Assembly (NCBI GenBank): GCA_044892505.1
Contig: CM097882.1
Location: 157,790,001-157,854,000 of the forward strand
Direction of reading: 5' to 3'
Length of the DNA stretch: 64,000 nt
DNA from: Schmidtea nova
Lineage: Eukaryota
This document shows, one piece after another, positions 3,290 through 64,000 of this stretch. Positions within the stretch are counted from its first letter, which is position 1; every line of letters begins with the position of its first letter. Made by a program: the position numbers and the translations under genes. Below the pieces are notes generated by a model. It was not told where the DNA came from. It searched no databases and saw only the letters and a program-made list of their open reading frames with translations.

Positions 3290-4925
3290 GTAGAATATCA
3301 TCGCACGTGCGAAATTGTAAAAGTTTTCTAGGAGACCTGGAATGTCTTGGTACTATAGGATTTATTTAGAGGCTGCTTGAAATTCATGTAAACAGTCAAG
3401 GCAAATACGAAAGGAATTTCCAATTCTTTTTCATAATTTAATAGTATATGATCTACATCATATCCTTAAATACGGTTTAAGTGAGTTTAAAACTTAGAAA
3501 GTTTCTTGCATAGAGACGAGAAGTGAAAAGTTCTTAACTTTATCTGCAAGAATCGGTGGTTTAACTGTCAAATTTATCGATTCTTGTCAGTTTATAAATA
3601 GTTCTTTAAATGATGCTGTTAAAACTTTAAATAATTTTCATATAACACAATTAGAATTTAGAGGAACCATCATTATTAGTAAAGGTATTTTTTCCGTAAA
3701 ATATTGCTACTAGTCTGAAAGTGCTTTAGACAACTTTCGAATTGCCTCCAATTTAGGAAAATGTAACTGAAGCCCAGTACAATATGGCACAAGTTATATC
3801 GAGGGAAACAGATTGCGTTAATCTTTGTGATTATATGATGATTAATCTGAAATTTGATGTCTTCCTTCTTGCCAACTTTTTCCAGCAGTTTCGAACCAAA
3901 TCCTTAGCTCATAATCGTCTTGAACCTTTGAACTTTATAGGTATTCTAGGTATGTCTTGGAGTTCAGCTTTGATGACTTTAGATGAACCAATCAAGTTTA
4001 TCCAAAACATGGAAATGTATAATTTCTTTGAAGGTCGAATACATGGGAGATTTACATTTGTAAACAAAAATTTTGTAAAATCAAATCAAAGCACAGAAAT
4101 TTTATATATTGATATAAATAACTTATATATTTGGGCTCTTAGCCAGTATGTGAACTTTTCTTGGATTACCGATGGTAATGAACTAAATAATTTTATCAAT
4201 TTAATGAATGTAGATCTTGAATAACTTACATATGGTATAACATTTGAAGTAGATTTACAGATTCTCACATCTATTCATGATAAATCAAAAAGAAATATTC
4301 AAGACATACATTGATAAAAACACTAAACTTCAAGCAGAATCAATTAATACATTATATAAAAACAATTATAAACTTTTAAATAATTGTCTCTACGGTTTTA
4401 CCATAGAAAATCTTTAAAAAAAATAAATTTAAGGCTATGTAATTCGGTGACAAAATTAATTACATATGCATCTAAACCGGATTTTAAAAGAACATATAAA
4501 GTTGATGATCTAATCCAGGTTTTATTAAATAAAGATTCTGTATGTTTAGATAGACCTAGGTACATTGGACAAACCGTACTAGATCTATCTAAACTACGCA
4601 TGTATCAATTACAATATAATGATTTAGAAAAGTATCGTGTTGAATTTGATTGCGAAATAAATATAATTGCAGGCGACAGATTCATTCTTTTTAGAAATCA
4701 AAAGATTCAAGTTAGATGTGCTTTTACCTGCTTTGGTTAGAGATAATCTATTGGATACATCTAATCATGACACATCTCATCTCTTATGTTCAAGAGCCCT
4801 TGATTCCCTCATTGGTATATTTAAAGACGAAAATAAAGGGTGTAATATAAGGAATGGGTGTTCATTAGACCAAAATGCTACAGTCTTTTGGATGATAAAG
4901 GGATCATTAAATCTAAGGGTATAAT
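3290..4925 (+). pseudogene. degenerate protein-primed B-family DNA polymerase (Polinton/Maverick/adintovirus type)
   Basis: Fragments FPILFHNLIVYDLHHIL (~3417), EMYNFFEGRIHG and ILYIDINNLYIWALSQ (PolB motif A), SKPDFK and DRPRYIGQTVLDLSKLRMY; many stops and frameshifts. Confidence 0.8.
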
Positions 4926-4983
4926 AATTATTAATACTGGTGTGTTGGTTAGATGGACAACTGAGATCATTTGGATTTTATGC

Positions 4984-5155
4984 GTTAGGGTGATCTCACC
5001 AACATAAAAACCGATCCCCGCTGACACCCATGATGTATCCCTAACTACTCATCATGTTGGTGCTGTGTCAACGTTGTGAAATGACAAGGCAGGTGAGCAA
5101 CCTCGCGGTTACTATTCCCTTGTTTATTCACGGGTCCACCACTACCGATAGAAGG
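4984..5155 (-). ncRNA. conserved pseudoknotted cis-RNA element, copy A
   Basis: Sense CCTTCTATCGGTAG...CTGCC stem, GTAACC-GCGA-GGTTGC hairpin, CATGATG/CATCATG hairpin whose loop GTTAGGG pairs with downstream CCCTAAC; homologues at 11674, 43384 and 48117. Confidence 0.7.
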
Positions 5156-5330
5156 TTTCTGTGGATTTCATTCGGTCCCGATTATATGCGCTCTCTCGTT
5201 GTACTAGGGTAAACTCAATTATTAGGGTGCCTGTAACCTCAAATGAATCAGTTTGGTTTACTTTACATTTAATTTTCCAAGCATACCATAGACAAACAAA
5301 TCAAGCCAATCAGCGGTTACACCTTTATTT

Positions 5331-5888
5331 TTAGCTCAAAAATACAGACGGTCTGATCACATCTAATAACTGGTTCTCTGTGAGTCCGCTTAACAAATCC
5401 ACTTCAATGCCCAGTCGTTCGGCATACGCTCTGCGCTCACGTCGTTTCTTCGCCCCTAGGCGATTGCGACGTTTGGTCCTCTTCGAGCCTTCCGGTGGCG
5501 TCGATATCGCTGGGGTGGACGTCATAGGGTCGGGTTCTGTCTCGGTCTGAGTACTGGTAGTGATAGCAATCGTATCCACCCATCGATTGAATGTACTCGC
5601 CCGGATCATGGGGCGTAATTGTTGGGTAATGAACTCCTGCGTGGAGGTTTTCAGGTAATTGTGTAATTCAAGCTTTACGGCCACTACTTCTCTCGCTTGT
5701 TCCTCGGCTACTCGCTCTGCTCGGTACCGGGCTTGTAATATCGCTTTGACCCTCTCTGGATTAAACCAAGTGGTCTTGATGCGCTGGTGTTCTTCGTTCA
5801 ACTGGCGCAATCGACTCTCGAGAACCTTAGAGCGGGCCTTATGCTCCCGGGCCTCTCGCTTGTAATCACGGGAGTTTTCAGTATTCAT
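5331..5888 (-). CDS. LTR-borne ORF2, coiled-coil protein with arginine-rich motif (185 aa, intact)
   Basis: Homologous to 12051-12612, 42494-43069 and 48595-49179 (WF(N/S)PE, IRxxxFxRW, K/RxRLGxxxRRxRR); acceptor TTTTTCTTTGTAG directly before ATG; AATAAA right after the stop. Confidence 0.8.
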   Translation of the reverse strand: MNTENSRDYKREAREHKARSKVLESRLRQLNEEHQRIKTTWFNPERVKAILQARYRAERVAEEQAREVVAVKLELHNYLKTSTQEFITQQLRPMIRASTFNRWVDTIAITTSTQTETEPDPMTSTPAISTPPEGSKRTKRRNRLGAKKRRERRAYAERLGIEVDLLSGLTENQLLDVIRPSVFLS

Positions 5889-6120
5889 CTACAAAGAAAA
5901 ATGTGTGTTCAGTTCGAGTTATGATGAAACGAGGGTTGGGTGTTCCCGGCTGCCCCTATCCATTAAGTTGTTATAATTCAACGTTCTGTCAGTTTCGCAT
6001 TCTTTAAATTTCTCGGCACTCATCTCATTCAGAAATCACAACAAGACTTTTCTACAAAATTTTATTTGGTTAAAACAAAAATTCAGTTGGTTTCTTATGT
6101 CCCGATGAAGACATATCTTC

Positions 6121-6765
6121 CTAGAAGAAAGGCCGTATCTCTTGATCCATGTTTCGGTCATCTCGTCTCTTTCCATCGGCTTGGTACAGTTCTGGGGACG
6201 GGTGCCAACAAAGTTTATCTTTGTATGCAAACACCTCCCATAATCGGAGTTCGCTCGGATATGGGTTGGGCTCCAAGGTTACGCTTCCGGGCGCGTGTGA
6301 GTAGAGCTGGATTTCCCCAGTGTCGCTACACCAAGGCCTATCCAGGAGAAGATATCCGAGCCTATAGAATGCCGGGCCCGTCATGATTTCGGTGCATAGG
6401 ATCCAGCGAGGCTGTCCCGCTTCGTCAGTCATTTGGATGAACCATCGCGAGAGGTTCAGGTTGGGCTGGCTCGGAGATACCGACCAATCCGAGTCTCCTT
6501 CCCATCGCAGTTGGAATTCGAATGAGCACGAGGCGACTCTGGCCGCGGGGCTGGTGTGTCGTCGCGTCCACCTGCGAAGGTGTCGGCAAGCTTGCCGAAC
6601 CCTCTGAATGGGTGCGTCCTCCGTCCCTTGAAGTTTCCTTCCTCCTTGTCTATCCGTGTGCTGCTCAGACATGGAGTGCGGGGGTTTCCGGCTCCTTTTA
6701 ACTCGATTTGACTGCTGCTGGAATGATGAAGTCGACATCGGAGTGATAATGTTTTCGAGCTTCAT
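6121..6765 (-). CDS. LTR-borne ORF1, unknown function (214 aa, intact)
   Basis: Shares the WEG-x-x-x-W...FI-x-M-x-D/NE-x-G-x-PRWI pattern with 13023-13307 and, more weakly, 49506-49982; acceptor TTTATTACGACAG directly before ATG. Confidence 0.7.
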   Translation of the reverse strand: MKLENIITPMSTSSFQQQSNRVKRSRKPPHSMSEQHTDRQGGRKLQGTEDAPIQRVRQACRHLRRWTRRHTSPAARVASCSFEFQLRWEGDSDWSVSPSQPNLNLSRWFIQMTDEAGQPRWILCTEIMTGPAFYRLGYLLLDRPWCSDTGEIQLYSHAPGSVTLEPNPYPSELRLWEVFAYKDKLCWHPSPELYQADGKRRDDRNMDQEIRPFF

Positions 6766-7626
6766 CTGTCGTAATAAATAATTTTTGTTGAGTGATCATC
6801 ATTGATTTTTCGTTATGCGTTTATAGTCGATCATTCCACGCAGATTAGTGATTTAGTCGATCTTATGCATGTGGGTGGCTAGTAGCCAGACGGCTCACCA
6901 TCGGTTGATCGGTGTAATAGACCGTGCTATATTCGTGGGACTGTACGTTGGTTATCATCTGTCACTAGATATTGGTATCATTTTAGAATTATTGACAATC
7001 ACTCAAATCACACATCACAACCGAAATACTGGCATTTGTTTCATTACTAGTTTCTAAATCCCCATCACTCCCGCCAACATACATCATCACCCTTTGGGTG
7101 CCTCATCGGTATCTATCAATGATCATCGCTCTTTAGAGTGAATTGGGGTTTGGACCTAGTAAATTTTAACCCCTGTATGAAATGCTCATGCACTATCAAC
7201 CTTAAATTTTGGTGTTCACCCCTTGTCCTGAATTCTCTGTGGTCCGCAGTAGGTATTCTGTATTATCTCCACCTCGTCTGATATACGGTCGACACGATGT
7301 TTCTCGACATCCCATGTGCATCCCTTTCCCCGATCAATAATTAGTTAGTACACCTAGGGTCTCGCCGCATCAGCACCTCATATGAAAATATGTTGTGCCG
7401 AGAGACCGAGAATCCCGTCAGACCGTTAGGCCTTCGGGACGATCCTTACTGATTTTAATATTATTATGAGGGTTTAAAATCAAAGAAAACACCAAGTTAA
7501 CCATACCTTTTATTTCGATGCTACTTTCTCGTTGAAAATCTCACAAAGTTACAGTTAGTTCACATTCGATAAAATGGCTGATAACCAGTGACTGGCAAAA
7601 AAGTGACCCTCATACTGATTTCGCTT

Positions 7627-7668
7627 CAGTATTTATACTAAGTTTATGTTGTTGGCCGGCCAATCAGC
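7627..7668 (-). promoter_or_regulatory. LTR promoter (TATA plus CCAAT box), copy A
   Basis: Minus-strand GCTGATTGG followed ~20 nt later by AGTATAAATACTG; same pair at 41050-41090 and 50877-50923. Confidence 0.7.
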
Positions 7669-8127
7669 ATCGAGTATGTGTGTACTTATTGCTACTCATT
7701 TATGTTCGTCAGTCTTTCTGTGTAATTCTATTCAGTAAGTTGTTTATTTAACCATGCGTTAATTCTTTGTTATGATTTATTTTATTTTAGATGTTCGGTG
7801 ATGTCCGCCCACGTCCTGTCATATTTTCAGATTTATCTGATTTGCATGGGTGAGTTTTTATTGTTACTTTATTTTGATTTATTCTTTTGTTGTTTTCAGA
7901 TTCTGCCGCGTATAGCTGACTATTTGCTGATGGTAATTGATTTTTGTTGTTATTTTTATGTACATTTATTTCATTAAATTTTTATTACTTTTCAGGTGAC
8001 TGCTGATTTGTCTGGCCCAACATTAATATTATCTATAATATTATTATTATTTACCAAATGAATTGCGAATTTATTAAAGCTATGTAAACATAACAAAATA
8101 GAAAATAAAATTCAGATATTAAAATGT

Positions 8128-42493: not shown

Positions 42494-43069
42494 ATGTTGT
42501 CAAATAACTCAAGCTCGCAAACTGAATTAGATAAGGCTTGGCTATTCATTCACAGCCTAGAGAAGGAAATCAATCTAACCAAAGAAAAGCTAAAAAATTC
42601 TGAAACAACAAATTCACATCTTCGCAAAAGCTGGTTTAGTCCAGAACAAATGAAAAGTCAACTTATAAAAAATCAACGCGCCCAACGAGCCGGAGAAGAG
42701 TACCGCATCGAGCTCGAAGTAACGAAAATAGAATTAAGGAAATGTCTGCGCTCGGTGACGACGTCATTCATTGACACTGAGTTGAAGAATCTAATACGGC
42801 CAGTTACTTATCAACGCTGGTCGGAAGAAAAAGCTGGATGTTCTATAGAAACTAATACCGAAGGGTTTCCGCAAATCCCTGAGGTTATAACAACAACAGC
42901 ACCGAAAATCTCATCTGCAATTGAAATTAAGAAAAACAAGAAAAACAAAATGGGCTCACGCCAAAGGAAGTGGAAAAAACAATTCGCTCAACAGAGAATC
43001 CATCACAATGATGAAATTCCAGAAATCGATCTGACGACAGATTTCATGACATGGGATGAGGATTTTTGA
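42494..43069 (+). CDS. LTR-borne ORF2 (intact)
   Basis: Acceptor GATTTTCAG ends at 42489, ATG at 42494; WFSPEQMK, LRKCLRSVT, LIRPVTYQRW, KNKMGSRQRKWKK. Confidence 0.8.
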   Translation: MLSNNSSSQTELDKAWLFIHSLEKEINLTKEKLKNSETTNSHLRKSWFSPEQMKSQLIKNQRAQRAGEEYRIELEVTKIELRKCLRSVTTSFIDTELKNLIRPVTYQRWSEEKAGCSIETNTEGFPQIPEVITTTAPKISSAIEIKKNKKNKMGSRQRKWKKQFAQQRIHHNDEIPEIDLTTDFMTWDEDF

Positions 43070-43383: not shown

Positions 43384-43567
43384 CCTTCTATCGGCAGCGA
43401 CGAACCCGCGAACATAAATGGGGAGTAGTTCTAGAAATAGGGCTCCCCTGCCCATCATTGTTAAAACACCTTACACATTTTCAACTCGACTATCCAGGGA
43501 AATAGTCGAGGGTGCTTGTGTGTCACGTAAGCATTTTATGTTTGGTCGTGGATGGAGGCATCCCTAG
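43384..43567 (+). ncRNA. conserved pseudoknotted cis-RNA element, copy C
   Basis: CCTTCTATCGGCAG...CTGCC, GGGGAG/CTCCCC, CTCGACTAT/ATAGTCGAG hairpin with loop AGGGA complementary to downstream TCCCT. Confidence 0.7.
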
Positions 43568-44329: not shown

Positions 44330-46290
44330 TTTGAAAATGACATTCAATATAAAAACTTTGGTAGAATTTCTGACAAGGTTTCTTTGATTCATTATATCAT
44401 TCATAAAAAATTTATTCTATCCATTGTTTTTGCCCTAGATTCTGCAACATAACGTTCACCACAACCAAAGGCATGTTGAAAACTTCTTCACCATTTTTGG
44501 CTCCTCCAATAATCGTCAAAACTAACACATTGTCCAATAATTTGATAATTCTTAATCTTGTTCCATTGCCTAAACCTTCCTTCAGATTGATGTTTCGTAA
44601 AAGCATGACAATACAACTAACTCTAAGTGGTAGTTTATGAGACGGCATACCACTTGGAGTAAAGTGTTTGCAAAAATTCTAAAGAATAGAGTCTCAAGAT
44701 ATCTTCATTGTCACAAATTCCTGAATCGCTACTGTAATAAGATTTCTTTTCTCCATGCATCAGCTTTATAATTTCTTCGTTGTATTCAAAAGCATCTTCA
44801 TTTCTTGTACGGATGTAAATTGGTTTATATCACCACCATAAATCTCTGCAATAAGTGATTTTTTAGCTAGACCTTGCTGAGGAATTTCATTTATATCTTC
44901 CTGTAATCCATCATTGTTTAATTTTTCACCATTACCAATTTTCAATAGAAATTCAGGACCCTCATTTGCTCCTTTATTTGCTGCACTGTCGAAGTTTCAA
45001 AGTCTCTCCAGAGTGATGAATATTCCAGAGTGCATTCCAATATTTTATTCTGCTTGCATTCTTCACAACTGGTAAGCACTGTCACCAATCACCATCAATC
45101 ACTTTAACCTTTCCTCCAAACGACTTTGTTTTGAGTTTGTTATCAATACTGTCCATTAGGTCTTTTAATATTCTACCAATCGCTTTTAATGCATGCTTTG
45201 ATGCCATTGGGCCTTCGTCTACGATAATGAAACTGGTAGCACCGCGAACATGATTCGACAATAATATAATGTTAAACTTGACTCTTTGTGATGGGCACAC
45301 TGGATACATTCATGGAACTAAAAATCTTTTTGCATTTACTCTCTTCACCCATCCTGTTTGTTTATCTGCAAATTTGTAGTGAAGTAGAATTTCTACTATC
45401 GTCTCGATCTTTACTGTTTAATTCAAAACATTGAGTAAGTGTCGTTAAGTAAGGGATTCCTGCTCCTCTGATAACTTCATTAGCTGTTGTCAAGGCAACG
45501 GTTTGCTTATTTTCTTCATGAACTGCAAGTTTCATGTTATTATTGCTGATTGATCATGGATTTCCAATTCCAACAAACGAAATACAACTTCGGGTGCACA
45601 ACAAAATTGCCAATTTCACTATAGCCACTTTGTGGAACATTGTTTCTCATCTTAACGGATATTAAATCAGTATTATTTCCTATTTAGATGTAATTGCATG
45701 TATTAAATTGATGGAACAGCAACCTTCAACGTAGAAGCGACAATCGAATTTCTTCAAAAGATAGGCAGTGGAATTACCCTTTGATTGTCAACTAATCGCC
45801 ATCCACTTTCCACAGATCTTATTTCTGATCGTTTATGAGCCGAATCGCCATTCATTTTTACTTCAGTGAATGTTGTTTTGGAATTTGTTCTTACTTTCCT
45901 TTAGACATGCATGGAAAATTTGCATTTACTTCACCACATGGTCCATCTATCATAAATTAAGTTAAGAATGCAAATAATTCTGACTTTTCTGCCTCCGAAA
46001 ATATCTCTGCTGATATAAATTTATCAATAACTTCATTATAATAAATTCTATCTTAATCTTTAAGTGTCAAATGGTTATGTGAATGCGGCAGACCACACTT
46101 TTGAGATTAAATGACAGATCTCCATGACTTACATTTTCCAAATATTTCCCTCTTTCTATAAGATTATTGATAAGTTCTTCCAACTTTAACTTCAAAATCC
46201 TTGCCACTAAATCATGTCGATCATGAGGTGCTTCCCCAAAAAATTAGTTGTCATTGACTTTAGTTATAAATAGAGTTAAATCATCCTTCT
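44330..46290 (-). pseudogene. Helitron Rep-Pif1 helicase remnant
   Basis: PHDRHDLVARILKLKL and QKCGLPHSH (Rep); IIVDEGPMASKHAL...FGGK..GDW and PSHKLPLRV..IVMLLRNINLKEGLGNGTRL (Pif1); frameshifted. Confidence 0.85.
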
Positions 46291-47902: not shown

Positions 47903-48116
47903 AGCTAAACCATTTTGTCGTAGCTCCTCAAAATATTTTTGCTTCCACAGAAGATTGACGAAAATAACTCTTTTGCCAGGTTCCATTGCCCTATTTTGAA
48001 CCTAGTTCTCTACAAAATTCATAAGTTCATCATATCTGCTGGGATTATGGGTGGGTTTTAAGTAATTCAGATAAATAGTTAATCATTAATTGAACGACTA
48101 CTGATGAGTACGTATA

Positions 48117-48296
48117 CTAGGGATTCCACGCCCATAACCATACATAACATGACTACTACACGCGTATGCCCTTGACTATTCCCTACTAGTCAAGTTGGTA
48201 CTGCATACGGTGGTGGAAAAATGATGGGCAGGTGAGCTTTGTTGCCAAAACTACTCCCCATTTATCTTCCCTCGGGTCCTTGCTGCCGATAGAAGG
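48117..48296 (-). ncRNA. conserved pseudoknotted cis-RNA element, copy D
   Basis: CGTATGC/GCATACG and CTTGACTA/TAGTCAAG stems; loop TAGGGA pairs with downstream TCCCTA. Confidence 0.7.
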
Positions 48297-48594
48297 TCTT
48301 ACGCATTTACATTCTAGGGATGTTCGCCCTACTGAATTTTGTACTACATATCCTTATGATCTATCATACGCTTTTCCCAATGACTTTCTTTAATTGATCT
48401 ACAATGTAATTAATCAGTCCCTGCGTAGAAACGGTCGGTTTGAGAAAATTTCGGGTGCGATTTTTTATTTCGATGATTTCATTGTTGTTATTTTATTTTA
48501 TTTAGTAACATCACCCGATGAGAGACAAAATTTACACAGAAAATACTTTTATTAAAATACTAAAATCAGGTTGTTATTTTACATAGATATTTTC

Positions 48595-49179
48595 CTAAGC
48601 GAATTCCAGACTGATCTCCTGAATCAACTCCGCTTCGGTTAAGGAGTTCAAGTGGTGGATTTGTTCGTCCAGGCGCTTTGCAAATTCTCGGCGACGACGA
48701 CGCTGTCGCGATCCCATTCGGTGTTTTCGAAGCTGTTGGTTTATGACCGGTGCTGACGCTATTGTTCTCGGGGGATCACTGAGAAAAATAGACAAGTCTT
48801 CCGTTGCGAGAGTGGGGGCCATGATGATTTCCTCTTCCGTCCCGCAAGCGACATCTTGGTGAGTGCATTGTATCCAGCGCTGAGCCGTGATCGGCCGGAT
48901 TAGCGCTCGTAATTCGGAGTCGATGTAACTTCTTGTTACTGCATTTAGGCAGTTTCGGAGTTCCCGCTGGACGGCATCTAGTTCCAATTTGGTTGCGGCC
49001 AGTGCTTCCTGCATCCGCTCAAGTTTTTTCGACTGGTCCTTCATTTGTTCGGGTGAGAACCACTTCGCTCTCAATTCATCATTGGCGACCGTGAGTCGCT
49101 TGATCTGTCGCTGCTGGTCCCTCAACTTCCTTTCTTGGATTTGTCCCATGATTTTCTTAGAATTTTCTGAAGTCGGCAT
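48595..49179 (-). CDS. LTR-borne ORF2 (intact, MPTSENS...)
   Basis: First ATG at 49179, 5 nt after acceptor ATATTCAG; WFSPEQMK, LRNCLNAVT, LIRPITAQRW, KHRMGSRQRRRRREF. Confidence 0.82.
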   Translation of the reverse strand: MPTSENSKKIMGQIQERKLRDQQRQIKRLTVANDELRAKWFSPEQMKDQSKKLERMQEALAATKLELDAVQRELRNCLNAVTRSYIDSELRALIRPITAQRWIQCTHQDVACGTEEEIIMAPTLATEDLSIFLSDPPRTIASAPVINQQLRKHRMGSRQRRRRREFAKRLDEQIHHLNSLTEAELIQEISLEFA

Positions 49180-49505
49180 GTTGTCTGAATATGATAACGA
49201 TAAATTCGCTGGAGGACCTATCACCAATGTTATTTTATTTAAACAACTATTTATTATTATTAAACGAGTTACATACTAATGTTTTTAATTATTGAGTTCT
49301 TTGCAAAATTATTTAACTACCTAATTATTGAAGGCTCAAAAAATTTATTGAACTAATTTGAGATTATTAAATGAAATTCCTAATGACTATAACAACTACA
49401 ATACTAAATATTAATAAATCTACATTACAACACTATTAACAAAATGAACATTTCAGATTTCTTTAAAACATTTATTTAATTTAGAACAGGTGGCCATTGA
49501 TGTAA

Positions 49506-49982
49506 CTAGTTATCTTCGGTCATTTTTCCTCGATACGAAAATATCGATCTGATTTGCAAATTTGTATGGATTCCTGTGCTATTGGACGAGGCCTGCTGAA
49601 AACGGGTTCTCTCCGCTTCTCGAAGGGGTCGTATGGCTGTATTGAACTTGAACCCCAATTCCTTGAAGGTAGAGGCTGGAATGAACCCCCAATAAATGAC
49701 ACATTTCGGGAATCCTCCCTTATCCAACATCAGAACGAACCAGGCGGCGTGCCATGATTCGAATTCCTCGTCTGGAATGATTGGCCAACTAGCGCATCCC
49801 CGGTACCATACGTGATGCCGTGGATGGTCCCATACCGTAAATGGACAGGCGATTTCGAGCTCTCGGCGCCATGCCCACATTTTTTGATGGATTTGCTGTA
49901 AAATCTCGAAAGGTGCCGGCTTTAATGGGCTAACTCGGGCTCGTTCTTGTCGTTTTTTGATAGTGTATCTATGCTTAGTCAT
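49506..49982 (-). CDS. LTR-borne ORF1 (158 aa)
   Basis: WYRGCASWP...WFVLMLDKGGFPKCVI resembles the copy A/B ORF1 core; acceptor AAATTCAG ~15 nt before ATG. Confidence 0.62.
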   Translation of the reverse strand: MTKHRYTIKKRQERARVSPLKPAPFEILQQIHQKMWAWRRELEIACPFTVWDHPRHHVWYRGCASWPIIPDEEFESWHAAWFVLMLDKGGFPKCVIYWGFIPASTFKELGFKFNTAIRPLREAERTRFQQASSNSTGIHTNLQIRSIFSYRGKMTEDN

Positions 49983-50876
49983 GATTCCAAAACGATGCTG
50001 AATTTTATAATAGTTACAATTTACATCAATAATTAATCATAGTAAATGTTATCTCTCATCGTGATACCCTTATTATTTGCCTTCCCCTTAGACCTTAGCT
50101 GAAATCAAGGAAAACTGTCGTTCGTTACGGTATGCATTACTCTCGTATCTACTTAGCTTTATCTGTTTACGATCAATATTATAGTTGAAAAATGGTGATT
50201 TGTCTGCTTGGATTTTTAAAATATTGATACCTCAACACGGAAGCTCTCTCCCGTCATGTATCCCTAGCTTATTCGAAAAACGCTCTTTTGTACCAAATGC
50301 GGTCGACAAAATTTTCTGAGGTTTATTAGACGTTTATCTAGCAACAATTCGTGCCTCCCCACGGTTAAAGAATTCTTTCATATCTTTAAGCTTTATCAAA
50401 AATTTATCGTCCCCTCCGTAGCCAAAACGATCAGAAAATAATTCCCCGGATTTGTTGGGTGTCCCATGTGCAAATCTCATCCATCACTAACAAAATTATG
50501 TTTTGTTATTTATTACTTTACCGTGTGTGGAGCCCTCGAGCACCACGCCACGGACGGACACCTTGGGAACCTAAAGCTCCCAACGGCGCAAGATTAATAT
50601 GATAGTTTAAATAGTTTAAATATAACATAAATCATGAGATAACTAATAAATTATAATATGATAATGACATACGAATACAACGATATCATAAACGTAAATA
50701 TACCAAAAATACCTCAATTGAATTCTGAAAATTTATTGATCAAAATCGGTCTAAACGGTGATCGTCGTCGGGGCAATGTGCAATCTAATGTGAATTTTTA
50801 GTTAAAGTCTAAATTTCAGTCTAACAAAGTCTACTGAAGTCTCACTCTAGTCAAAACGTCTCTTTTTATGAAAAAT

Positions 50877-50923
50877 CTGATCAGTATTTATACTGATCAG
50901 TCGTGTCTAGACCGACCAATCAG
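50877..50923 (-). promoter_or_regulatory. LTR promoter, copy D
   Basis: CTGATCAGTA-TTTA-TACTGATCAG palindrome containing TATAAATA on the minus strand, CCAATCAG box adjacent. Confidence 0.7.
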
Positions 50924-51491
50924 GTTCGGCCATTTTCAGGGTGGTTTTTAATTATTGTTCTTGATTCTAATTAATTTTTATTTTTTAGATTGTATTCTTC
51001 CTTGGAGGTCCGGGTTTCAAAAACAATTATTCAATAACAAGTACTTTTATTTTGTTTTAATTACCATTATTTGTATTTATTTTGTTTTTTAGATGTCTCC
51101 TGGGCCAGTTAATATCTCGAAATTCCTTTATTTTTATTTATAGCTTGTATTTAGTTTATCTATATTTTTACTATATTATTCCTTTCTTTTAATAAATAAA
51201 TATTCCCCTTTTTATCTTATTTTTCTCTTTTTTGTTTTAATTAATCCACTTTTATTTCACTGTTCCCTCTATTTGGCTGGCCCAACATCACTCGGGGACC
51301 CCTAAAATTGCGTCCCGCAATTAATTATACATTTACACCTATATCATCATACATAAAAATTAAGCAGATAAATGTCAATTTACATATACACAAAGAATCA
51401 CATAAGGTGATAGATTTTATACGTAAGCACAAAGTCATATTATTGTTAAATGTAAGTGGATCATACATAAAGTGAATGTAATATATCAGTT

Positions 51492-52145: not shown

Positions 52146-53207
52146 TTACACAATCGTCTCGTTTGGTTCGTAGAAACCTTCGTCCTGAGGCTCTACCTGA
52201 TTCGTGGGGAGTGGTATCCATACAACCCTGCTCCTCCACATTTCGACTTCATCTCGATACATGTGAGATATCTGGATTTCCTCGTCCAGCAAATATTCTA
52301 GGTAATTTGCTTGTTCTGTTAATGTTTCTATTTGCTTCTCTAATTCGATTACTTTTGTCTTTTGTTCGTCTTCCTTCATCATTTTTGTTACGGCTGCCGT
52401 TATACTTGCTTCTTTGGGTATTACTGATACTGTTACTCGTTTCTGTTTCAATTCTTCGTTTTCTTTCATCAAATTCGTTAAATTTTCCTCATAACTTTGT
52501 TTCTCTTCCTTTAACCTTTCTCTGGTTCTTTTTAGCTCTATTTTCTTCTGGGTAATCACTCCTTGATAACCATTTATATCTCTCTTCATCTCTTCTTCTT
52601 TCTGATTCCATATTCCGGTGAGCATAATTTTCAGTTGTTCTTGATTAGCAAGTTCTTCTCCCATTCTTTGAACTTGATAGGTTAGTCCTTTAATTTTCTT
52701 TGCTTGTTCCCGGATAAATTGCTGTCTCTTTGTATTCCATCTTTTATTCAACACTTCTTGGTGTATTTTCTGTTCTAACTCGTCTTTTAATTCGTCGATC
52801 TCTTTATATAATTTCCAGTCATCACTATAAGCTGTCCTTTCTATTATTTCTCTAGCTTTTTCGTAAGATTCTTTCGCTTCTTTCTTCCAGTATCTTGCTT
52901 GTTCTGTAATCGAATACATCTTGTGTTCAGCTTCCATCTGCTGTCTGTCTCTTTCCTCTCGTCGCTCTTTCATCATTCTCTGGTAATATTCCTTTTGTTG
53001 TTGTAGCACTTTGTATACTTCTTCTATTTTTTCTCGACTTCTTTGACTTGATCTTTCCGCTTCTTTTAATAATTCGGCTTGTCTCTCTATCTCCTCTTGT
53101 TTCCCATAATATGCATTGACCCATATTTCAATCTGTTCTCGATGATCGCTAATCGCTTCGGCTTGATGTATCGTAATTTCTTGTAAGCATACTTCGATAT
53201 TTCCCAT
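52146..53207 (-). CDS. accessory coiled-coil protein (353 aa)
   Basis: Long E/K/Q/R-rich helical ORF; T-tract acceptor TTTTTTTTTTGAAATTATAG 2 nt before ATG. Confidence 0.8.
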   Translation of the reverse strand: MGNIEVCLQEITIHQAEAISDHREQIEIWVNAYYGKQEEIERQAELLKEAERSSQRSREKIEEVYKVLQQQKEYYQRMMKERREERDRQQMEAEHKMYSITEQARYWKKEAKESYEKAREIIERTAYSDDWKLYKEIDELKDELEQKIHQEVLNKRWNTKRQQFIREQAKKIKGLTYQVQRMGEELANQEQLKIMLTGIWNQKEEEMKRDINGYQGVITQKKIELKRTRERLKEEKQSYEENLTNLMKENEELKQKRVTVSVIPKEASITAAVTKMMKEDEQKTKVIELEKQIETLTEQANYLEYLLDEEIQISHMYRDEVEMWRSRVVWIPLPTNQVEPQDEGFYEPNETIV

Positions 53208-53324
53208 TGCTATAATTTCAAAAAAAAAATTTTTTTAATCGGTTTATATATCAGTTATTTTTTGTTTATATAATAATTTTTGGGTATTTAACTGTACACA
53301 TTATTTACATGATCACTTCTCTTG

Positions 53325-54707
53325 TTACGTCAACCATCCTTTTCTATCCGCTTTCTCATTCCTTTCCATTTCTATGTATAGGGTGTCTGCATATAATCGT
53401 TCCCATAAGCTTTCTTTCGTTATAAACATCGGTTCTCCCGCTGCTAATCCACATTCTGTGGTTGGTTTCTCGCTCGTACTCGCATGTTTCTCTGTCTCAA
53501 AGAATTTTTCCACCGGTTTTGCTACACTTCTGATTCTTATAATGACTCCTACTTTCAAGGGCCATTCTACTAGGTCGTCGTATTCTCCTTTACATAGCGA
53601 GAAAAATATTGACACATGTGTTCCTCGTCCTCTTCCGTCTCCATTTGGGTATAGCTTCAATCTCATTTTAGCTCCGTTTCTCCATAAATAAAATGGTGGG
53701 CTTATTACTGCTGTTTTCGTCATATTTCTGGCCTCTGTTAATTTGTCTCTAAAATCTGTCACTTTCCACACATATGGTGCGATTGGTAACTTTTCCTCGG
53801 TATCCTGGGTGAGTTTGTTGTACTGGATTTTCATTCCTTTAGCCAGTTCTTCGATAGCTTTTATCTTTTCCTCCATCTTTTCTCGTGTTAGTTCGAATTG
53901 CTCTCTGGTTTCCAACAGTAGGTTTACCATTATCTTGTGTGACTCTATTTCTCTTTCTAATTTTTTGATTGTTTGTTCGGTTTCTTTTGTTGCTTCGTTT
54001 GTCATTTCCGCATGCTTTAGCAATGCTTCCTCCAGATGTTGTTTCATGGTTTTTTGCGTTCTTTTCTCCATACATCCCTGTTTGTTATAAGGACATTCCC
54101 TTGGTTTCTCCGTGCACACTTTCCAATGTTCTTGTAATTTTACTTCTACCGTTATCTCGCATTCGTTTGAACATATTCCTACATATTGTCTACATACTTT
54201 CTCCTCTTTTACATTCAGGTGTTCTTCTTCGATCTTTCTCCTCGTTTCTCGAGTTCCACAATATTCGCATAGACTTTCCTCTTCTTTACATTCATCTTTG
54301 TGCTGCTCTTTATTCTTTATAGTTATTTTTTGTTGGCATTTGTTACATTCAGTTCTCTTCTCTTCGCAGTTCTCCAGATGGTTCTCGAGATCGCGTATTT
54401 GTCCTTGCCATATACATGGTTGATTTATACATTCGGTTTTCGTGTTCATGATTTCTCTCTGAGTTTCTCTATCTGGTCCGGTTTCTTCGAATTTTATTTG
54501 TCCTTCTTTGCATTCTGGACATTCTGGTGGTCTTTTCATACTTAACTCGTGTATGCATTTGGTACATACTCTGCATCCGCATAGGGTTTGTCTTGGTTTC
54601 AATATTATGTTTTTACAATTTACACAAGTGAGTCTCTGACTCCATTTCCTGTTCTCGGCTCTCAAAATTTCGATTATCCGCTCTTCGGCTTTTCCTTCTG
54701 TATTCAT
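53325..54707 (-). CDS. TRAF: TRAF-family protein (RING, TRAF zinc fingers, coiled coil, MATH), intronless
   Basis: CVNC...CGCRVCTKC...CPEC RING; CxxxC/HxxxC zinc fingers; MATH motifs VWKVTDF, SPPFY, LYPNGDGRGRGTHVSIFF, EYDDLVEWP; acceptor CATTGTAG 1 nt before ATG. Confidence 0.92.
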   Translation of the reverse strand: MNTEGKAEERIIEILRAENRKWSQRLTCVNCKNIILKPRQTLCGCRVCTKCIHELSMKRPPECPECKEGQIKFEETGPDRETQREIMNTKTECINQPCIWQGQIRDLENHLENCEEKRTECNKCQQKITIKNKEQHKDECKEEESLCEYCGTRETRRKIEEEHLNVKEEKVCRQYVGICSNECEITVEVKLQEHWKVCTEKPRECPYNKQGCMEKRTQKTMKQHLEEALLKHAEMTNEATKETEQTIKKLEREIESHKIMVNLLLETREQFELTREKMEEKIKAIEELAKGMKIQYNKLTQDTEEKLPIAPYVWKVTDFRDKLTEARNMTKTAVISPPFYLWRNGAKMRLKLYPNGDGRGRGTHVSIFFSLCKGEYDDLVEWPLKVGVIIRIRSVAKPVEKFFETEKHASTSEKPTTECGLAAGEPMFITKESLWERLYADTLYIEMERNEKADRKGWLT

Positions 54708-54797
54708 TCTACAATGATATATACACTTGATTTGTTATCTATTTTTTGATTTTTCTTGTTTTTGTTTTACATATTTACAATTTTTCGCTTTATTTAT

Positions 54798-55154
54798 CTA
54801 CGGCTCGTTTGTTGAATCTGGTTCTGGGTCATTTTCTGATCTGTTTATTGCCCAATTTGTCCATCCATCCTCTGCTTCTTCTGTCTCTCCCATTGTTAAA
54901 CGGTCTATCTCTATTGCTTGTCTCTGATTTATGTCGCTCATCACTTGATTCTCTCTGGTGAGTTGCGTTATCAATCTCTGTTGCTCCTCGATTCTGTGGA
55001 GTTGTTCAAAACTATTATTATAACTTTCGGATAACAAATTCTGTTTCTCAATTAACTGATTTTGTAGTGAGTTGATTGTTCGTATTAACATGTCACACTG
55101 GGCTTTCCATCGCATAGCCATAGTAGTTTCTGCTATTTCTTCCTGTTCGTTCAT
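54798..55154 (-). CDS. small accessory coiled-coil protein (118 aa)
   Basis: Heptad-like Q/E/L pattern; acceptor TTAATGTATATAATTTAG 3 nt before ATG. Confidence 0.7.
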   Translation of the reverse strand: MNEQEEIAETTMAMRWKAQCDMLIRTINSLQNQLIEKQNLLSESYNNSFEQLHRIEEQQRLITQLTRENQVMSDINQRQAIEIDRLTMGETEEAEDGWTNWAINRSENDPEPDSTNEP

Positions 55155-55279
55155 TTTCTAAATTATATACATTAATCGTTTTCTCGATTTCTCTTTTTAT
55201 ATTTTTATAATATCGATACCCATACTATTACGGTAATGCATTGTTATTTACACTATTATTTACAGTCATATCCCGCCTC

Positions 55280-58200
55280 CTATATCACCATCACTGTCTT
55301 TCCTTCGTATCGCTCTTCATCTTCTATTTGTCTCCAAAATTCTTTACCTTTCGTCCTCCTTTGGAATTCTTTATGTACTTCTTCCGGTAATTCTATACTG
55401 TAGTTCATGATCTTTATATCTGGCCAATGTGTTATTGGTTTCTTGTTGAATACATCATATATCCATATTATTAATAATACTGTTATTACTGGAATAGTTG
55501 CTGCTAGTATTCCTAGACCAATTAGTTCTCTAACTTGTTTGTTTACGTCCATCTTCGTAATTTCACTCTGGTTAATCATTGGTCCGTATTGTCCCTTTAG
55601 TTTATTTAGTAGTTGTTCTCGTTCTTGTTGTTTTCTTTTAACTTCTTTAATTACTTCTTCCGGCGTCCATCTTGCGTAAGGGTCTATTACTACTTGTTCC
55701 GCGTCCATTTGTTTCGTTGTCTGACTTAATTCTTTAAATTCGAGTTTTCTCACTTTCCCTTTGGACGTTGAGTTTACCGGTGTGTAGTACGTTTCGCATC
55801 TTTCCTGCTGATTTCCCAGTATGTCCGTCTTTTCTATCGCACATATCTCGTATTCGCTATTGAATTTCAGATTTCTGATACTTATTTCCTCTTTTCCTTT
55901 CGCGTTTCCACAGTCTCGTGGCTGTCTTTCCCTTTGTTTCTGAACTATTACCCAACATATTTCTAACGTTTTATTGTCTATTCTCCATAGTATAAGAGTT
56001 GCTGTAGTATTCTTTTCGGTTTTTATTTGTATATCTTGGTTTTTCTGTTGTCCATTAGGTTTAAAGGTAGTGGTATACCTCGCTTTTCCTTTGTTCCGTT
56101 GTCTTCTACTTTTTCGCGTTGTCTTTCCAGCTCTTGTTCTGGTGGGTGTTTTATATAATCTGCATTCCAATTCATTTACTGTTATTTTGTCGCTTTTCCT
56201 GATCAGGCATATTTCGTACGTTTGATTGCTTTCTAATCCTTCTATCTGTATTGTGGTTGTTCCTCTGTTTGTTCGACATTGCGGCGGTGTATTCTGGTTT
56301 GTTTTCCTTTCCTGCTTCTTCCAGCATACGCCTTTGACGTCCGGTTCTATCCCGGTTAACTCTAACATTATAGTTGTTCTCCGTTTGGTGCGTTTATTTC
56401 TTCTTCCTCGTCGTATGAACTTTATTGTTTCCCCAGGTTGAAATGTTTTACAAATTGTCGTTCCTTTCTTGTGTCTTTCTTTTTCTAGTAAACATAGTTC
56501 ATACGTCCTGTCTGCTTTTACTTCTGATATTTTGGTTACTTTATTTGTTTTCCTTTTCCGACTCGTCTTTATTTCGCTTACGCCAATTTCTTCGTTGCTT
56601 CTGGCCCAACACTTTGGGTTGGTGTTTTGGGTGTCGTTCATCTCTGTTACTGCCATTGTGTCAATGTCTATCCCTTCTTCTAACCGTTTTAACATTGTTA
56701 ATATGAGTGCTAAACATAGTAATTCTGTTTGGTAGGTCACTCTTTCGGTCTCGTTTGTGGTTACTCTTGCTTCGGGCCTGTCTATGGTAATTTGTATAGT
56801 TGGCGTTGTTCGTCTGTCTATTGTCTGAGGTTTCTTGTTTTTTGTTCCTTGTGTCTCTGTTCTTCCACACTTTCCTACAACATAGTCTCCTTTGGATGAC
56901 TGCTGTATTGTTATGGTTACTTTGGGCGTTAGGTAGTTTGCACATGCTATTGTGTTGTGTGATCTTGGATTCTTTTGTTTTCTGATGGTGCATATTTTGT
57001 ACCAAGTATCTAGCTCTAAGTCATCGATCTCTATGATTCCTTGTTCATATTCTGAGATCCTGCAATCCATTGGACTATTTTGTCCCGATATTTTGTCCTT
57101 TTTTGACCAACATACTCGTTCGATTCCTTTTGCGTTTCCAATTTGTATTGTCGCTCTTTCTTCACATATCATTCCTTGAGTTGGACTAATTAAGGTCATG
57201 ATTACCGTTAGTAATAATAGTTCTGGTTTAAAGAATGGGTTTATTGTTTGTTTGTAGCCTGTTCTTTTTGCTTCGTTTTTATTTTTATAGTTGTTGTTTC
57301 TTTGTTTCCCAAATTCATTTTTCTTATCATTTTTCTCTGTGTCCCTTCCTTTCTCTTCACTGTCCTCTTCATCTGATAACTCATGATCCTCTGGATTTTC
57401 TCGAGTACTATCGTCGTCGTTTCCTGTATTGTCGCCTCCCCTTTGGTCGTTGAAAATGTCGTCCTCGACATTAATTGCTTCTATCATTTTTTCATACGTT
57501 ATGGTTGTGAGTATACTTGCTTCATATTCTTGTGTTACTGCCTGCTTAGGTATTTCCTTATCGGTTAATTTACAATCTAGAATCTCTTTCTTGGCTTTTA
57601 TCCAATTATTAAGGTACGTTTTCATTAGTTCTTTCCATTTGTCCGTACGTTCTGTTTCCTTTGGGTTGTTTGTGAATCGTAAATCTTTTCTTCTCATGAA
57701 GATATCTATTATCTTTGGCCATTTGTTTATTATTAATGCACACTTTATATACAAATTTTGGCCTTGTTCCATGCATTCGTTGATCCTGAATGCTGGTTCA
57801 TTGGTGTTTGGGTTCATCCAATTGAGTATTGCTTCAGTTAGTTCAGCGTTATGCATCATGGAATGTACGCTAGCTTTTTTAACTGTCCTTGTAAGGTATT
57901 CTATTTCCTCCTGATTTGTGATTGTTTTTATGAAATTTATCACCTCCCAATTGTGCGCTAACAACGCTACGTCTAGTATTGAGCTGTCTTTGTTAGTTCT
58001 TCCCATGAGTCCTGCACCTGCTTCGTACAGTTCCTGTAACACTCGGGTTTTTGTGTTCGCTCTTGCTGCGAATATCATGAGGGTATCTCCCTTTTTATCT
58101 TTCATGTTCATGTCACTTCCGCAATCTTGCATCAACCGTGCAATTTCGACTACCCTCCTATCTTTTCCTGCTCGTAAGGCTCTATGTATTGGCAATACTC

Positions 58201-61200
58201 CATTCTTTGTTAATAAGAAAGTCACTGGCATTTCTCTTTTTATGATCATCATATCGTTTTCATTGTAAGTTCCTTCCGCATATGCGTGTACCTTTTCCAC
58301 AATTGCTCCGAGTATCTCCAGTGTATGTTTAGAATTTTCGAATTCTGGTAATAGTTCTTTTGCTTTGTCCTGTATCGCATCTAACCTTTCTTGATATGGT
58401 ACTTCTGCGCTGAAAAGTGGTGTAAATTTCCTTTTGCTTTCTCTTTCCTTTCGACATAGGAATTGTTTGCATTTTTCGGGGTGGTTTAATATGTCTATTA
58501 GTTTGTCATACTCTTCTTCCACCGTTTTGTATTTATCTTGAAAATTGGATATATCTTTGTAAGTTATCGTCTTGGTTAGCGATTTTGCACACCATTCCCT
58601 AATTTTCCTGAATAATGCTTCTTTTTCACTTTCGAATTTACACTCCTCTTTGTTTTTGGAAATTGTAATATTTCTTCTGTCCAATAATATTAACAGTGTT
58701 TTCTGATCACAAACTAATTTTAATAGGAATTGTAATAACGCGTTTTGTCCTTTACTGTATACTTCGTTTATATTTAATACCCATGTATCATTTTCGGATC
58801 TTTTCCATTTTATTAGCTTGCGTATTGTTTTGCAGTTACCGATTTTTATTGCCTCCTTGATTATATCACCTTTGATCAGTTCGTCTATTTCCCAAGTGGC
58901 CTTCTCGATTATTCGTTTGAGCATTATCTGATTTGAGCTCCATATTGCGTGATTCAAGACTGTTTTGTTTTCTCTATCGCGCTCCGTCCAGTTGAAATCG
59001 GCATTTATCAAAAGGTCTATTATTGCCTTATCCGATTTGTAGATGGCTGCTACCATTAATGGTGTTTCTTGTTCGCTATTCCCAAAACCAAGGTGTTGGT
59101 TGGTTTCCTTTGCGATTTTTAGAAGTTCTTTTACCCTCTCTACTTCTCCCCATTTTATGGCGTTATGTAATGCTGGTTGTCCTCCTATGTCTTCTAGTGA
59201 AAGTATTTCTGGAATTTTCTCCAGTAGTTCTGAAATGACTGGTTTTGTTGGTAGTCCCCTTGCGTAATCACTAATTATAGACTGTATATCTCTTAATATA
59301 TCGTCTCTGACATGCCATTTTCCCATTATTTCTCTGGCTTTTAGTACAATTTCCTTGTTTCTTTTTCCTTGTTGATTGTTTTCTGCTTCGGTACTTTCAT
59401 TGGTTGCTCTGAGCATATTCATTCTGGCTGTCTGGGATCTAGTTATTATTCGTTCTTCTGGCGTTGTGGTTATTGTCTTTGGTACTTCTTTACATCTGCA
59501 TGTATTAACGTATATTGGTCGTATCAATGGTCGATTAACAAGTTTTACCTTCACATTGTTTTCCTTTTTGTATATGACTTCGTAAGGGCCTTTTCCTGGT
59601 CTTTGTAGTTTTTTAACGGTTCCTGGTATTATTTCTGGGGTTTCTATCATTACCCAATCTCCCGGCTTAAGATCATTTGTTTTAACATTTTTCTTTTGAT
59701 CGTGTAGGTCCTTGTAACTTTCCTGGTAAAACTTTATGTTTAGCTCTGCTGTCTTCCATATCTCTTGCATTCGTTCTTTGAATTTGGTGACGTAATCATC
59801 TTCCTCCATATATTGAGACAAAGGTGGTTGATATTCAAGATCTATTGGCATATTGCATTCCCTTCCATACATTAATTGAAACGGACTCAATTTTGTTGCT
59901 GCGTGTATCGACATTCGGTATGCCATTAGACATAGCTTTATGTACTCATCCCAATCTGTTTGGTGTTTGCTTACATAATTGGATAACATTCGAATCAATG
60001 TGCCGTTAAATCTTTCCGTTTGTCCATTGGTTTGCGGATGATATGGTGACGTTCGTAATTTGGCTATCCGGAAGTAATTTGTTACTTCATCTAATATTTC
60101 GCTCATGAAATTTGTTCCTTGATCTGTTAGTATTTGTTTCGGGGTTCCGTATCGACAACATATTTCCTCTACTAAAATTCTTGCTACCGTCTTTGCTTTT
60201 TGATCCGGCATCGCAAATGCCTCAGGGAATTTCGTCAAATAATCCGTTATTACCAATATATATTGATTCACATTTAAACTTTCTGGCAATGGTCCTATTA
60301 CATCCATCGCAATGGTAGTCATTGGTTCCGCTGGTATTGGCATGGGTTTTAAGGGATTTTTCCATTTCTTCCCACTATCCTTTCTTGTGGCACAAGTTAA
60401 ACAGTTCTTTATCCATTCCTTTACGTCCTCGTCCATTGTTGGCCAATAATATTTTTGTCTCATACGATCTAATGTTTTCTTATCGGACATGTGTCCTCCC
60501 AACTTTCCGTCGTGGTATTGAGTTATTATCTCTTTTCGTCTATTACCTGGCAGACACATTAATCGTTTTTCTCCATCCTGTATTAATAACCATCCTTTTT
60601 CTATTGTGTATCGATGTTGGTATTTCCTCATGTGTTCTTTTAACTCCGCATTGTCTTTGAATACATCCATATTCCGTGAGCTTAGGAATTCTATGATGGG
60701 TCTTAGTTCTTTATCCTCTTGCTGATCTTTCTTTAACTCGCTGAAATCCAAATCTTCTGCTATCATTATGCATATTCTTTGCACTTCTGGGTCTGTTAAT
60801 TCTGGAAACGTTAATCTTGACATGCAATCTGCGTTGGCATTCGCTTTTCCTGATTTGAATTTTATATCTGGTGAATATTCTTGTAATTGCATCGCCCATC
60901 TCATCAACCTGCTGGATGTTTCCTTATGTTGTCCTAGCCATACCAGTGGTTGATGATCCGTGGTTATGCATATAATGTGTCCCCATAATAGATATTTAAA
61001 GTGTTTTATTGCTAATATTATTGCCAATGCTTCTCTTTCCGTTACTGAATAATTCTTCTCGTGTTTCTTGAATGTTCTGCTATAATATCCGATTACCCGC
61101 TCTTTTCCCTCGTCATCATATTGTCCTAACACTGCTCCTGCTGCATATCCACTTGCGTCGGTTGCGAGTAAAAATGGCTTTTTGAAGTCCGGGTGAACCA

Positions 61201-63997: not shown

Positions 63998-64000
63998 TGT

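Follow-up and report, generated by a model that had tools for sequence, protein, structure and literature searches.

An LTR-encoded protein of Burro-type elements in Schmidtea nova with a basic region resembling that of bZIP factors

Location of ORF2 in the LTRs of Burro-type elements

The window analyzed here is a stretch of 64,000 nucleotides of the Schmidtea nova genome (GenBank assembly GCA_044892505.1, contig CM097882.1, positions 157,790,001 to 157,854,000 of the forward strand), and coordinates refer to it unless another locus is named; the animal genome scanned is 1.25 Gb. The open reading frame under study, ORF2, is not a free-standing gene and sits inside an LTR. The elements and ORF2 copies of the window are as follows.

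4935..8022, minus strand: solo LTR of family B, Burro-type, 3088 bp, starting with TGTTGG, with a TTAA target-site duplication
5331..5888, minus strand: ORF2 of family B, 185 aa, inside the solo LTR
12051..12610, minus strand: ORF2 homolog of family D, its 5' part broken by stops and a frame change
42494..43069, plus strand: ORF2 homolog of family C, 191 aa, with a lysine-rich basic motif and no heptads after it
48595..49179, minus strand: ORF2 homolog of family A, 194 aa, in the 3' LTR of the intact element
48037..51288, minus strand: 3' LTR of an intact Burro-type element, 3252 bp, 99.8% identical to the 5' LTR
52146..64000, minus strand: internal region of the intact element, of which the 3' part lies in the window

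The intact element is 28.4 kb long, running from position 48037 upward, with 3252-bp LTRs, a GATA target-site duplication and, after the 5' LTR, a primer-site-like stretch, TGGGGGCTCAGCCGGGAT, which we take to resemble tRNA-Pro. As read from the coordinates, its gag-env-pol polyprotein of about 4,990 aa is ordered gag, fusion glycoprotein, protease, RT, RNase H, integrase, and ankyrin, and is followed by three accessory ORFs, one of which is a TRAF/MATH protein. PMC6431247 describes Burro (GYPSM1) elements as giant gypsy-like planarian elements of about 28–30 kb with a gag-env-pol polyprotein of about 5,000 aa, in which env lies between gag and protease, with ankyrin, MATH/TRAF, and RING genes and with thousands of copies. 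Because its size, polyprotein order, ankyrin, and TRAF/MATH gene match this description, the intact element is assigned to the Burro type; it has paired long LTRs, a target-site duplication, a primer site, and a total length near 30 kb, together with a single polyprotein of about 5,000 aa, env between gag and pol, ankyrin, and MATH/TRAF. The solo LTR is 75–82% identical to the paired LTRs L164/L165 and L172/L173. The homolog at 48595–49179 is present in both LTRs of the intact element (5' LTR copy at L022:2782-3366), the genome matches to ORF2 are largely paired about 25 kb apart, and homologs occupy at least hundreds of other LTRs in the genome.

Some further features of the window were recorded in passing. 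The accessory ORFs at 53207–55280 (minus strand) succeed each other at 90–125 nt. Every spacer contains a poly(A)-like word rich in A, and a TAG immediately precedes the following ATG; the arrangement is compatible with alternative splicing from the leader, or with a polycistronic RNA resolved by spliced-leader processing. At 23822–25082, inverted repeats several hundred bases long are nested within one another; they are related to sequence at 22.8 kb and 37.7 kb and are probably DNA-transposon ends. By eye, 44450–45250 (minus strand) resembles a decayed PIF1-type helicase, Helitron-like, and 3784–4900 and 32154–32525 (both plus strand) look like the decayed remains of a Polinton-like family-B DNA polymerase and of an integrase.

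Conservation of the ORF2 family

The ORF at 5331–5888 (minus strand, 185 aa) is as the first-pass annotation of this DNA described it, and the four basic motifs listed there were quoted correctly. A profile search of the window returned exactly four strong copies, at 5337–5888, 12072–12506, 42500–43045, and 48601–49179 (E-values of 1e-35 to 1e-83), which upholds the reported number of homologs, but only three of them are intact, the copy near 12.0–12.6 kb being broken. Of the motifs said to be common to all four, WF-x-P is kept (W in 69, F in 68, and P in 69 of 70 intact copies), and LRxCLxxVT is missing from the 5331–5888 copy, which reads LHNYLKTST. Three full-length protein queries of the genome each gave about 9,000 first-look candidates, with 150 scored and matched, figures that are not copy numbers. 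Seventy intact natural copies were kept from 140 loci (24 of family A, 30 of B or D, and 16 of C) and broken ones were dropped; 31 of the 70 are at under 90% identity. The four families are 21–42% identical, and in a 33-sequence alignment the identity to the 5331–5888 copy drops to 21–27% in families A and C, compared with about 40% in D. The encoded proteins have a pI of 9.0–10.3.

The dN/dS ratio is 0.06 in family B (105 pairs) and 0.10 in family C (78 pairs), values somewhat lowered by the choice of copies by protein similarity, and synonymous sites are near saturation while the proteins are still about 85% alike. The lowest ratio, 0.03, is found in the basic region of family B, compared with 0.29–0.42 in the linker, and among the 150 family-B matches that were scored we counted 121 free of internal stops. 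ORF2 is a real protein gene under strong purifying selection. A frame present by chance, or one held open by constraint on the LTR DNA, would agree with the failure to find a homolog outside the genome, but the substitution pattern, with its domain-wise structure, refutes this explanation. The many matches free of internal stops and the splice acceptor kept ahead of the start codon in all but one of the 70 copies also speak against it, and we give it almost no credence.

No homolog outside the genome was obtained by word-index protein searches, run with the single protein and, at near as well as at longer lengths, with the 33-sequence alignment, by a full HMM scan of 1.84 billion representatives in a mostly microbial library, or among viral contigs; in the ESM Atlas the best value was 0.75 in one search and another gave no match. 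As the libraries searched are mostly microbial, absence of ORF2 from other planarians is not implied. We found no description of ORF2 in the literature, and the primary Burro papers (Grohme 2018; Lee 2026) may already mark it. Section 7 of PMC6431247 mentions accessory ORFs of Burro/GYPSM1; it describes no ORF within the LTR and no protein that is bZIP-like or binds LC8. ORF2 represents a new family of accessory proteins in an already known giant element, and its coding sequence lies entirely inside the LTR.

Promoter and splice signals of the LTR

The solo LTR is arranged in the order CCAAT box, TATA, donor AAG/GTATGG, ORF1, ORF2, conserved RNA element, and LTR end. The features upstream of ORF2 are as follows.

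7615..7667, minus strand: core promoter, with CCAAT at 7660–7667, TATA at 7630–7637, and a CTGA-N7-TCAG inverted repeat at 7615–7629
7501..7509, minus strand: predicted leader-exon splice donor, AAG/GTATGG, donor at 7507
6121..6765, minus strand: ORF1 of the LTR, 214 aa, Trp-rich, no Pfam match, acceptor ACAG directly before the ATG
5889..5900, minus strand: predicted splice acceptor, a pyrimidine tract and TTGTAG directly before the ORF2 ATG

An AGGTA donor-like site lies 95–178 nt after the TATA in 17 of 23 distinct promoters, and a YAG at most 5 nt from the ATG is found in 69 of the 70 intact ORF2 copies versus 732 of 4712 other ATGs (16%). Splicing is predicted because a leader donor is combined with a conserved acceptor before the ORF2 ATG, and the pair points to a spliced ORF2 transcript, in line with the spliced mRNAs proposed earlier; ORF2 would thus likely be made from a spliced transcript of the LTR. 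Among the matches listed for contigs of four sequencing runs, whose kind is not recorded, no junction corresponded to the predicted donor and acceptors, a result that has no bearing on expression. Since promoter, donor, acceptor, and ORF are found within one LTR, each solo LTR could supply ORF2 protein. ORF1 copies are also present at 49506–49982 (minus strand) and at L172:6705-7337, with homologs in L088 and L172; the protein is 158–214 aa long, Trp-rich, kept in families A and B, and without a Pfam match.

An example of a gene encoded in an LTR, as ORF2 is, is sag of MMTV. Foamy virus Tas and other retroviral transactivators (PMC3856414) resemble ORF2 in its proposed role as a trans-acting LTR regulator encoded by the element, with no sequence likeness. 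Unlike Tas and sag, ORF2 is placed downstream of the LTR's own TATA with a donor and an acceptor, and the solo LTR holds the whole cassette.

Within the promoters, CTGA/TCAG words outside the CCAAT box number 101 in 23 promoters versus about 24 expected, an excess which, like the inverted repeat, is partly forced by the search pattern. CTGA-N6-8-TCAG follows just after the TATA in 8 of 11 LTRs with ORF2 evidence; it is missing in the other 3 and in family A, where the promoters have a compact CTGATCAG in its place. Canonical sites are rare in 23 U3 regions, with AP-1 in 3 and CRE in 0. We regard the 7615–7629 inverted repeat as a candidate target of ORF2.

Anatomy of ORF2 and a predicted LC8 anchor

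The protein of the 5331–5888 copy can be divided into three parts.

5607..5879, minus strand: likely coiled-coil oligomerization region, residues 4–94, two long predicted helices broken at WF-x-P
5541..5564, minus strand: predicted LC8/DYNLL-type anchor ITTSTQTE, residues 109–116, at the start of a disordered linker
5430..5477, minus strand: bZIP-like basic region, residues 138–153, with N-x7-R spacing, followed by two heptads only

AlphaFold2 places helices at residues 4–40, 44–94, and 97–111, disorder at 112–137, and helices from 143 on (143–167); pLDDT is mostly 84–97 in the first two helices and under 50 from residue 112, and with a pTM of 0.32 only the local structure is to be trusted. 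The N-terminal coiled coil claimed in the first-pass annotation is thus borne out as far as the long predicted helices go, the heptad signal being present only in part (p ≤ 0.03 in 4 of 8 segments tested). Searching PDB by sequence returned only designed coiled coils (E ≥ 0.11), Foldseek gave nothing at E ≤ 0.001 against the pdb and viral sets, and the best VIA-align hit (Z 7.0) was to generic long helices only. Weak matches to NSE2 and TDG (E ≥ 0.39) were taken as chance, and a likeness to hepatitis delta antigen was unsupported in Pfam.

The anchor had been overlooked before. Viral LC8 clients include rabies P and Ebola VP35, and the host genome has intact LC8 genes. The anchor reads STQTE in family B, GTNTE in C, ETQTE in D, and ACGTE in A, with the second Thr kept in 69 of 70 copies and the offset fixed at 9–10 residues after the RW helix. 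The strict form [TVI][QN][TV][DEP] occurs in 42 of 70 copies and a looser form in 66 of 70, versus 1.6% in shuffled linkers, and the dN/dS of the anchor is 0.05–0.08 versus the 0.29–0.42 of the adjoining linker. A TQT-type anchor in a disordered region with P, D, or E at +2 is what marks an LC8 client in sequence, and ORF2 has it. PMC3078936 gives the anchor consensus, PMC6607443 gives flanking rules, a phage-display optimum of VSRGTQTE, and the caution that many TQT peptides fail to bind LC8, and Table 1 of PMC5746249 lists TNT motifs that bind. SRGTNTE of family C is close to the phage-display optimum, and the CGT form of family A is unsupported in the two LC8 papers searched for it. As in the clients WWC1 and AMOT (PMC5746249), the predicted ORF2 anchor lies in a disordered stretch beside a helical oligomerization region and has E/D at +2; unlike them, family A has CGT.

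The host LC8 genes are expanded and intronless, in tandem clusters at G000:C2 5.2–6.7 Mb, 20 Mb, and 42–45 Mb, with 20 full-length loci fetched (L143–L162) and 61 matches. A 153-aa RING ORF between the 5' LTR and gag (L021:9434-9895, minus strand; L170:4615-5076; L172:4547-5005) has TQTEE in families A and C, not B, a possible second LC8 site.

Coiled coil, LC8 anchor, and basic tail, with the high pI, could also make ORF2 a structural or transport adaptor, that is, an LC8-bound, non-specific nucleic-acid chaperone for genomic RNA or the pre-integration complex. However, gag already has CCHC knuckles, and the basic region keeps its exact residue order beyond what charge demands, and we consider this role quite improbable.

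Similarity of the basic motif to bZIP basic regions

The C-terminal 53 aa of the 5331–5888 copy gave one Pfam match among 24,736 families, bZIP_1 (E = 0.00038), at a score of 20.9 bits versus the gathering cut-off of 27.6; other copies scored up to 25.1. bZIP_1 was matched by 8 of 22 C-terminal pieces (last 51–58 residues), all from B or D and none from A or C, and in a full-length Pfam search of 33 members by 3 (best E 0.0023), among many other weak matches. When the genome was scanned with bZIP_1, ORF2 copies ranked among the weaker host bZIPs; 10 of 15 fetched sub-cut-off loci (L191–L205) are ORF2 copies and the remaining five resemble bZIP proteins of the host. RNRLGAKKRRERR shares 9 of 13 residues with the basic regions of two Fos/ATF-like proteins of the host, and the N-x7-R/K basic helix of Fos/ATF3-like bZIP factors (PF00170) recurs in ORF2. 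Position 142 is N in 45, H in 24, and S in 1 of 70 copies and position 150 is R or K in all 70, giving N-x7-R/K in B, C, and D and a His variant in A. Residue order matched the bZIP pattern better than composition-matched shuffles did (p ≤ 0.002 in 12 of 12 B/D copies and p ≤ 0.006 in 7 of 8 C copies) in a test that, unlike the Pfam E-value, does not account for library size, the bZIP idea being post hoc. For family A, which has His for Asn, the result was marginal (p 0.03–0.06).

In contrast to bZIP factors, ORF2 lacks a proper zipper, its first Leu being at N+17 and followed by two heptads in A, B, and D and none in C, where host bZIPs begin at N+18 and have longer zippers. An invariant Gly stands in the basic helix where bZIPs have Ala, the Pfam score is below cut-off, and the likely dimerization region is N-terminal, set apart by a flexible linker. 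Alignment of profiles with hhalign against host bZIPs gave a probability of 9% for the C-terminal part (E 0.0035) and 4% at full length, and the C-terminal profile matched no bZIP in PDB at E ≤ 10. Basic regions without a zipper are known from SKN-1, and viral bZIPs from HTLV-1 HBZ and EBV Zta. By the definition in PMC4676100, a leucine zipper starts exactly nine residues after the R/K; ORF2 has neither such a zipper nor a score at the Pfam cut-off, and is outside the bZIP family so defined. Its basic region may nonetheless work like that of a bZIP, paired by the N-terminal coiled coil and LC8.

Comparison with Rev-like proteins and the downstream RNA element

The first-pass annotation had likened ORF2 to Rev and Rex. 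The arginine-rich motif on which this leaned is present in families A, B, and D (6–8 Arg in 18 residues), but in family C lysine predominates, with 8 K against 2 R over the same length. A specific likeness did not materialize: Pfam REV was matched only at E ≥ 0.43, in 4 of 33 members, and by none of the 22 C-terminal pieces, and a REV scan of the genome gave one unrelated-looking match (E 2.2) from only 2 candidates. Export signals fall into spacing classes, and these were used for pattern tests. Forward class-1 patterns occur in 3 of 31 tails versus 15 expected from shuffles, a reverse-type pattern fits the B/D tails only, and the A and C copies listed have none of the patterns tested. On this sequence evidence a bZIP basic region fits the ORF2 basic motif better than Rev does. 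The response elements of Rex and Rec are located in the LTR. Rev-like proteins are defined by response-element binding, multimerization, and a CRM1 signal (PMC3856414). Like Rev, Rex, Rem, and Rec (PF00424; PMC3856414), ORF2 is small, basic, and likely oligomeric, with a predicted spliced mRNA and a structured RNA nearby; unlike Rev and Rex, it has no sequence match, no conserved forward export pattern, and a Lys-rich motif in one family.

The structured RNA, noted earlier as lying directly downstream, is a real feature of the LTR.

5070..5160, minus strand: conserved RNA element, an invariant CCTTCTATCGGYAG and a covarying hairpin with an internal loop, about 200 nt from the LTR end

The motif has 2710 exact matches in the genome and 0 in a reversed control, and 8 of the 12 predicted pairs of the hairpin, which lies 165–330 nt downstream of the ORF2 stop, are changed on both sides among 24 sequences. 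Folding of single sequences was unexceptional (z of −0.9 to −1.2 in four and −2.7 in one), and a search of Rfam with the family-A LTR found no match at E ≤ 1. An HDV-like ribozyme was a poor fit by eye. Outside the covarying hairpin, an invariant CCTTCTATCGG is seen at 5070–5160, 11790–11850, 43385–43450, and 48230–48296, and GGCAG could pair with CTGCC as an alternative or a pseudoknot.

Among 30 loci with the RNA motif, ORF2 is upstream in 19 and not in 11, and three distinct insertions, in which the paired LTRs are spaced by about 24 kb, have neither ORF1 nor ORF2 in either LTR and retain the promoter and hairpin. As such insertions have spread, ORF2 is dispensable in cis, and as they keep hairpin and promoter alike, a DNA and an RNA target are not separable from sequence. 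An ORF-less family-B lineage has 1.6-kb LTRs in near-identical pairs (L219/L220, L226/L227, and L229/L230), where about 520 nt of unrelated sequence replaces ORF1 and ORF2 in at least 3 insertions; this is not a clean donor-to-acceptor deletion and so is no proof of splicing. L168/L169 is a 12-kb gag-only element with a 948-aa ORF containing several CCHC knuckles and 1430-bp LTRs, which have the RNA element and primer site common to the Burro type and a different promoter.

These observations bear on the main rival to a DNA-binding role, in which the basic helix would bind the hairpin at the LTR end in the manner of Rev, Rex, or Rec, so that full-length RNA escapes splicing or LTR polyadenylation and leaves the nucleus. 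Every accessory ORF has a YAG before its ATG, so that one leader donor faces many acceptors, which full-length RNA must bypass. The covarying hairpin with its internal loop, kept in ORF2-less elements, would suit such a role, as would the Arg content of A, B, and D and the reverse-type export pattern of the B/D tails. On the other side, the hairpin occupies the usual place of a U5/packaging or 3'-end signal and may be explained without ORF2, forward export patterns are scarcer than in shuffles, family C is Lys-rich, and the REV model matches poorly at full length and not at all in the C-terminal scan. What survives of the Rev analogy is a selected family with splice signals, a basic helix, and a hairpin; a specific likeness to Rev or Rex does not, and we regard this explanation as doubtful. 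A Rev-like export factor in a gypsy element was not found described in the literature.

Proposed function of ORF2

A second use for the basic motif would be as a nuclear localization signal, or as a competitor for host bZIP sites, in an effector directed at the host that alters the activity of host stress genes or weakens piRNA silencing by way of complexes containing LC8. The basic region of a bZIP also serves as an NLS (PMC4676100), PIWI controls Burro (PMC8532177), LC8 dimerizes the Drosophila PICTS silencing complex (PMC7861614), and a RING/BIR region that protects stem cells is cited (PMC13465017). Burro carries other host-modulating genes (TRAF/MATH, RING, and ankyrin), and the dispensability of ORF2 in cis is in keeping with such an effector. 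Placement in the LTR near the promoter would, however, suit self-regulation, and N/H and R are conserved at base-contacting positions beyond the needs of an NLS, and on balance we think a host-directed effector unlikely.

The reading we prefer, tentatively and at less than even odds, is that ORF2 is a dimeric nuclear factor acting in trans, likely by binding DNA at the LTR promoter. Dimerization would likely be through the long coiled coil at the N-terminus, with host LC8 acting as a clamp, and the dimer would likely present two bZIP-like basic helices that bind DNA. Its target would most plausibly be the element's own core promoter, from which ORF2, located in the nucleus, would activate or repress LTR transcription in trans. 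Complex retroviruses, unlike ordinary gypsy elements, are characterized by encoding their own regulators of transcription or RNA export. The bolder proposal that a gypsy retrotransposon encodes its own LTR-borne transcription factor, in which a zipper-less bZIP basic region has been re-dimerized by a coiled coil and LC8, is speculative, and we advance it with considerable reserve.

Burro is abundant and recently active (LTR pairs 99–100% identical) and is reported to aid planarian stem cell survival. With an LTR-borne gene whose product has a basic helix and a predicted LC8 site, and for which a promoter repeat and an RNA hairpin are candidate targets, control of Burro transcripts becomes testable, and solo LTRs, here, may be protein-coding genes and not inert remnants. 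If the bolder proposal is true, thousands of solo LTRs would be self-contained regulator genes, together forming a feedback loop across the genome by which Burro activity is set, and the influence of ORF2 may extend to Fos/ATF targets of the host in stem cells and during regeneration.
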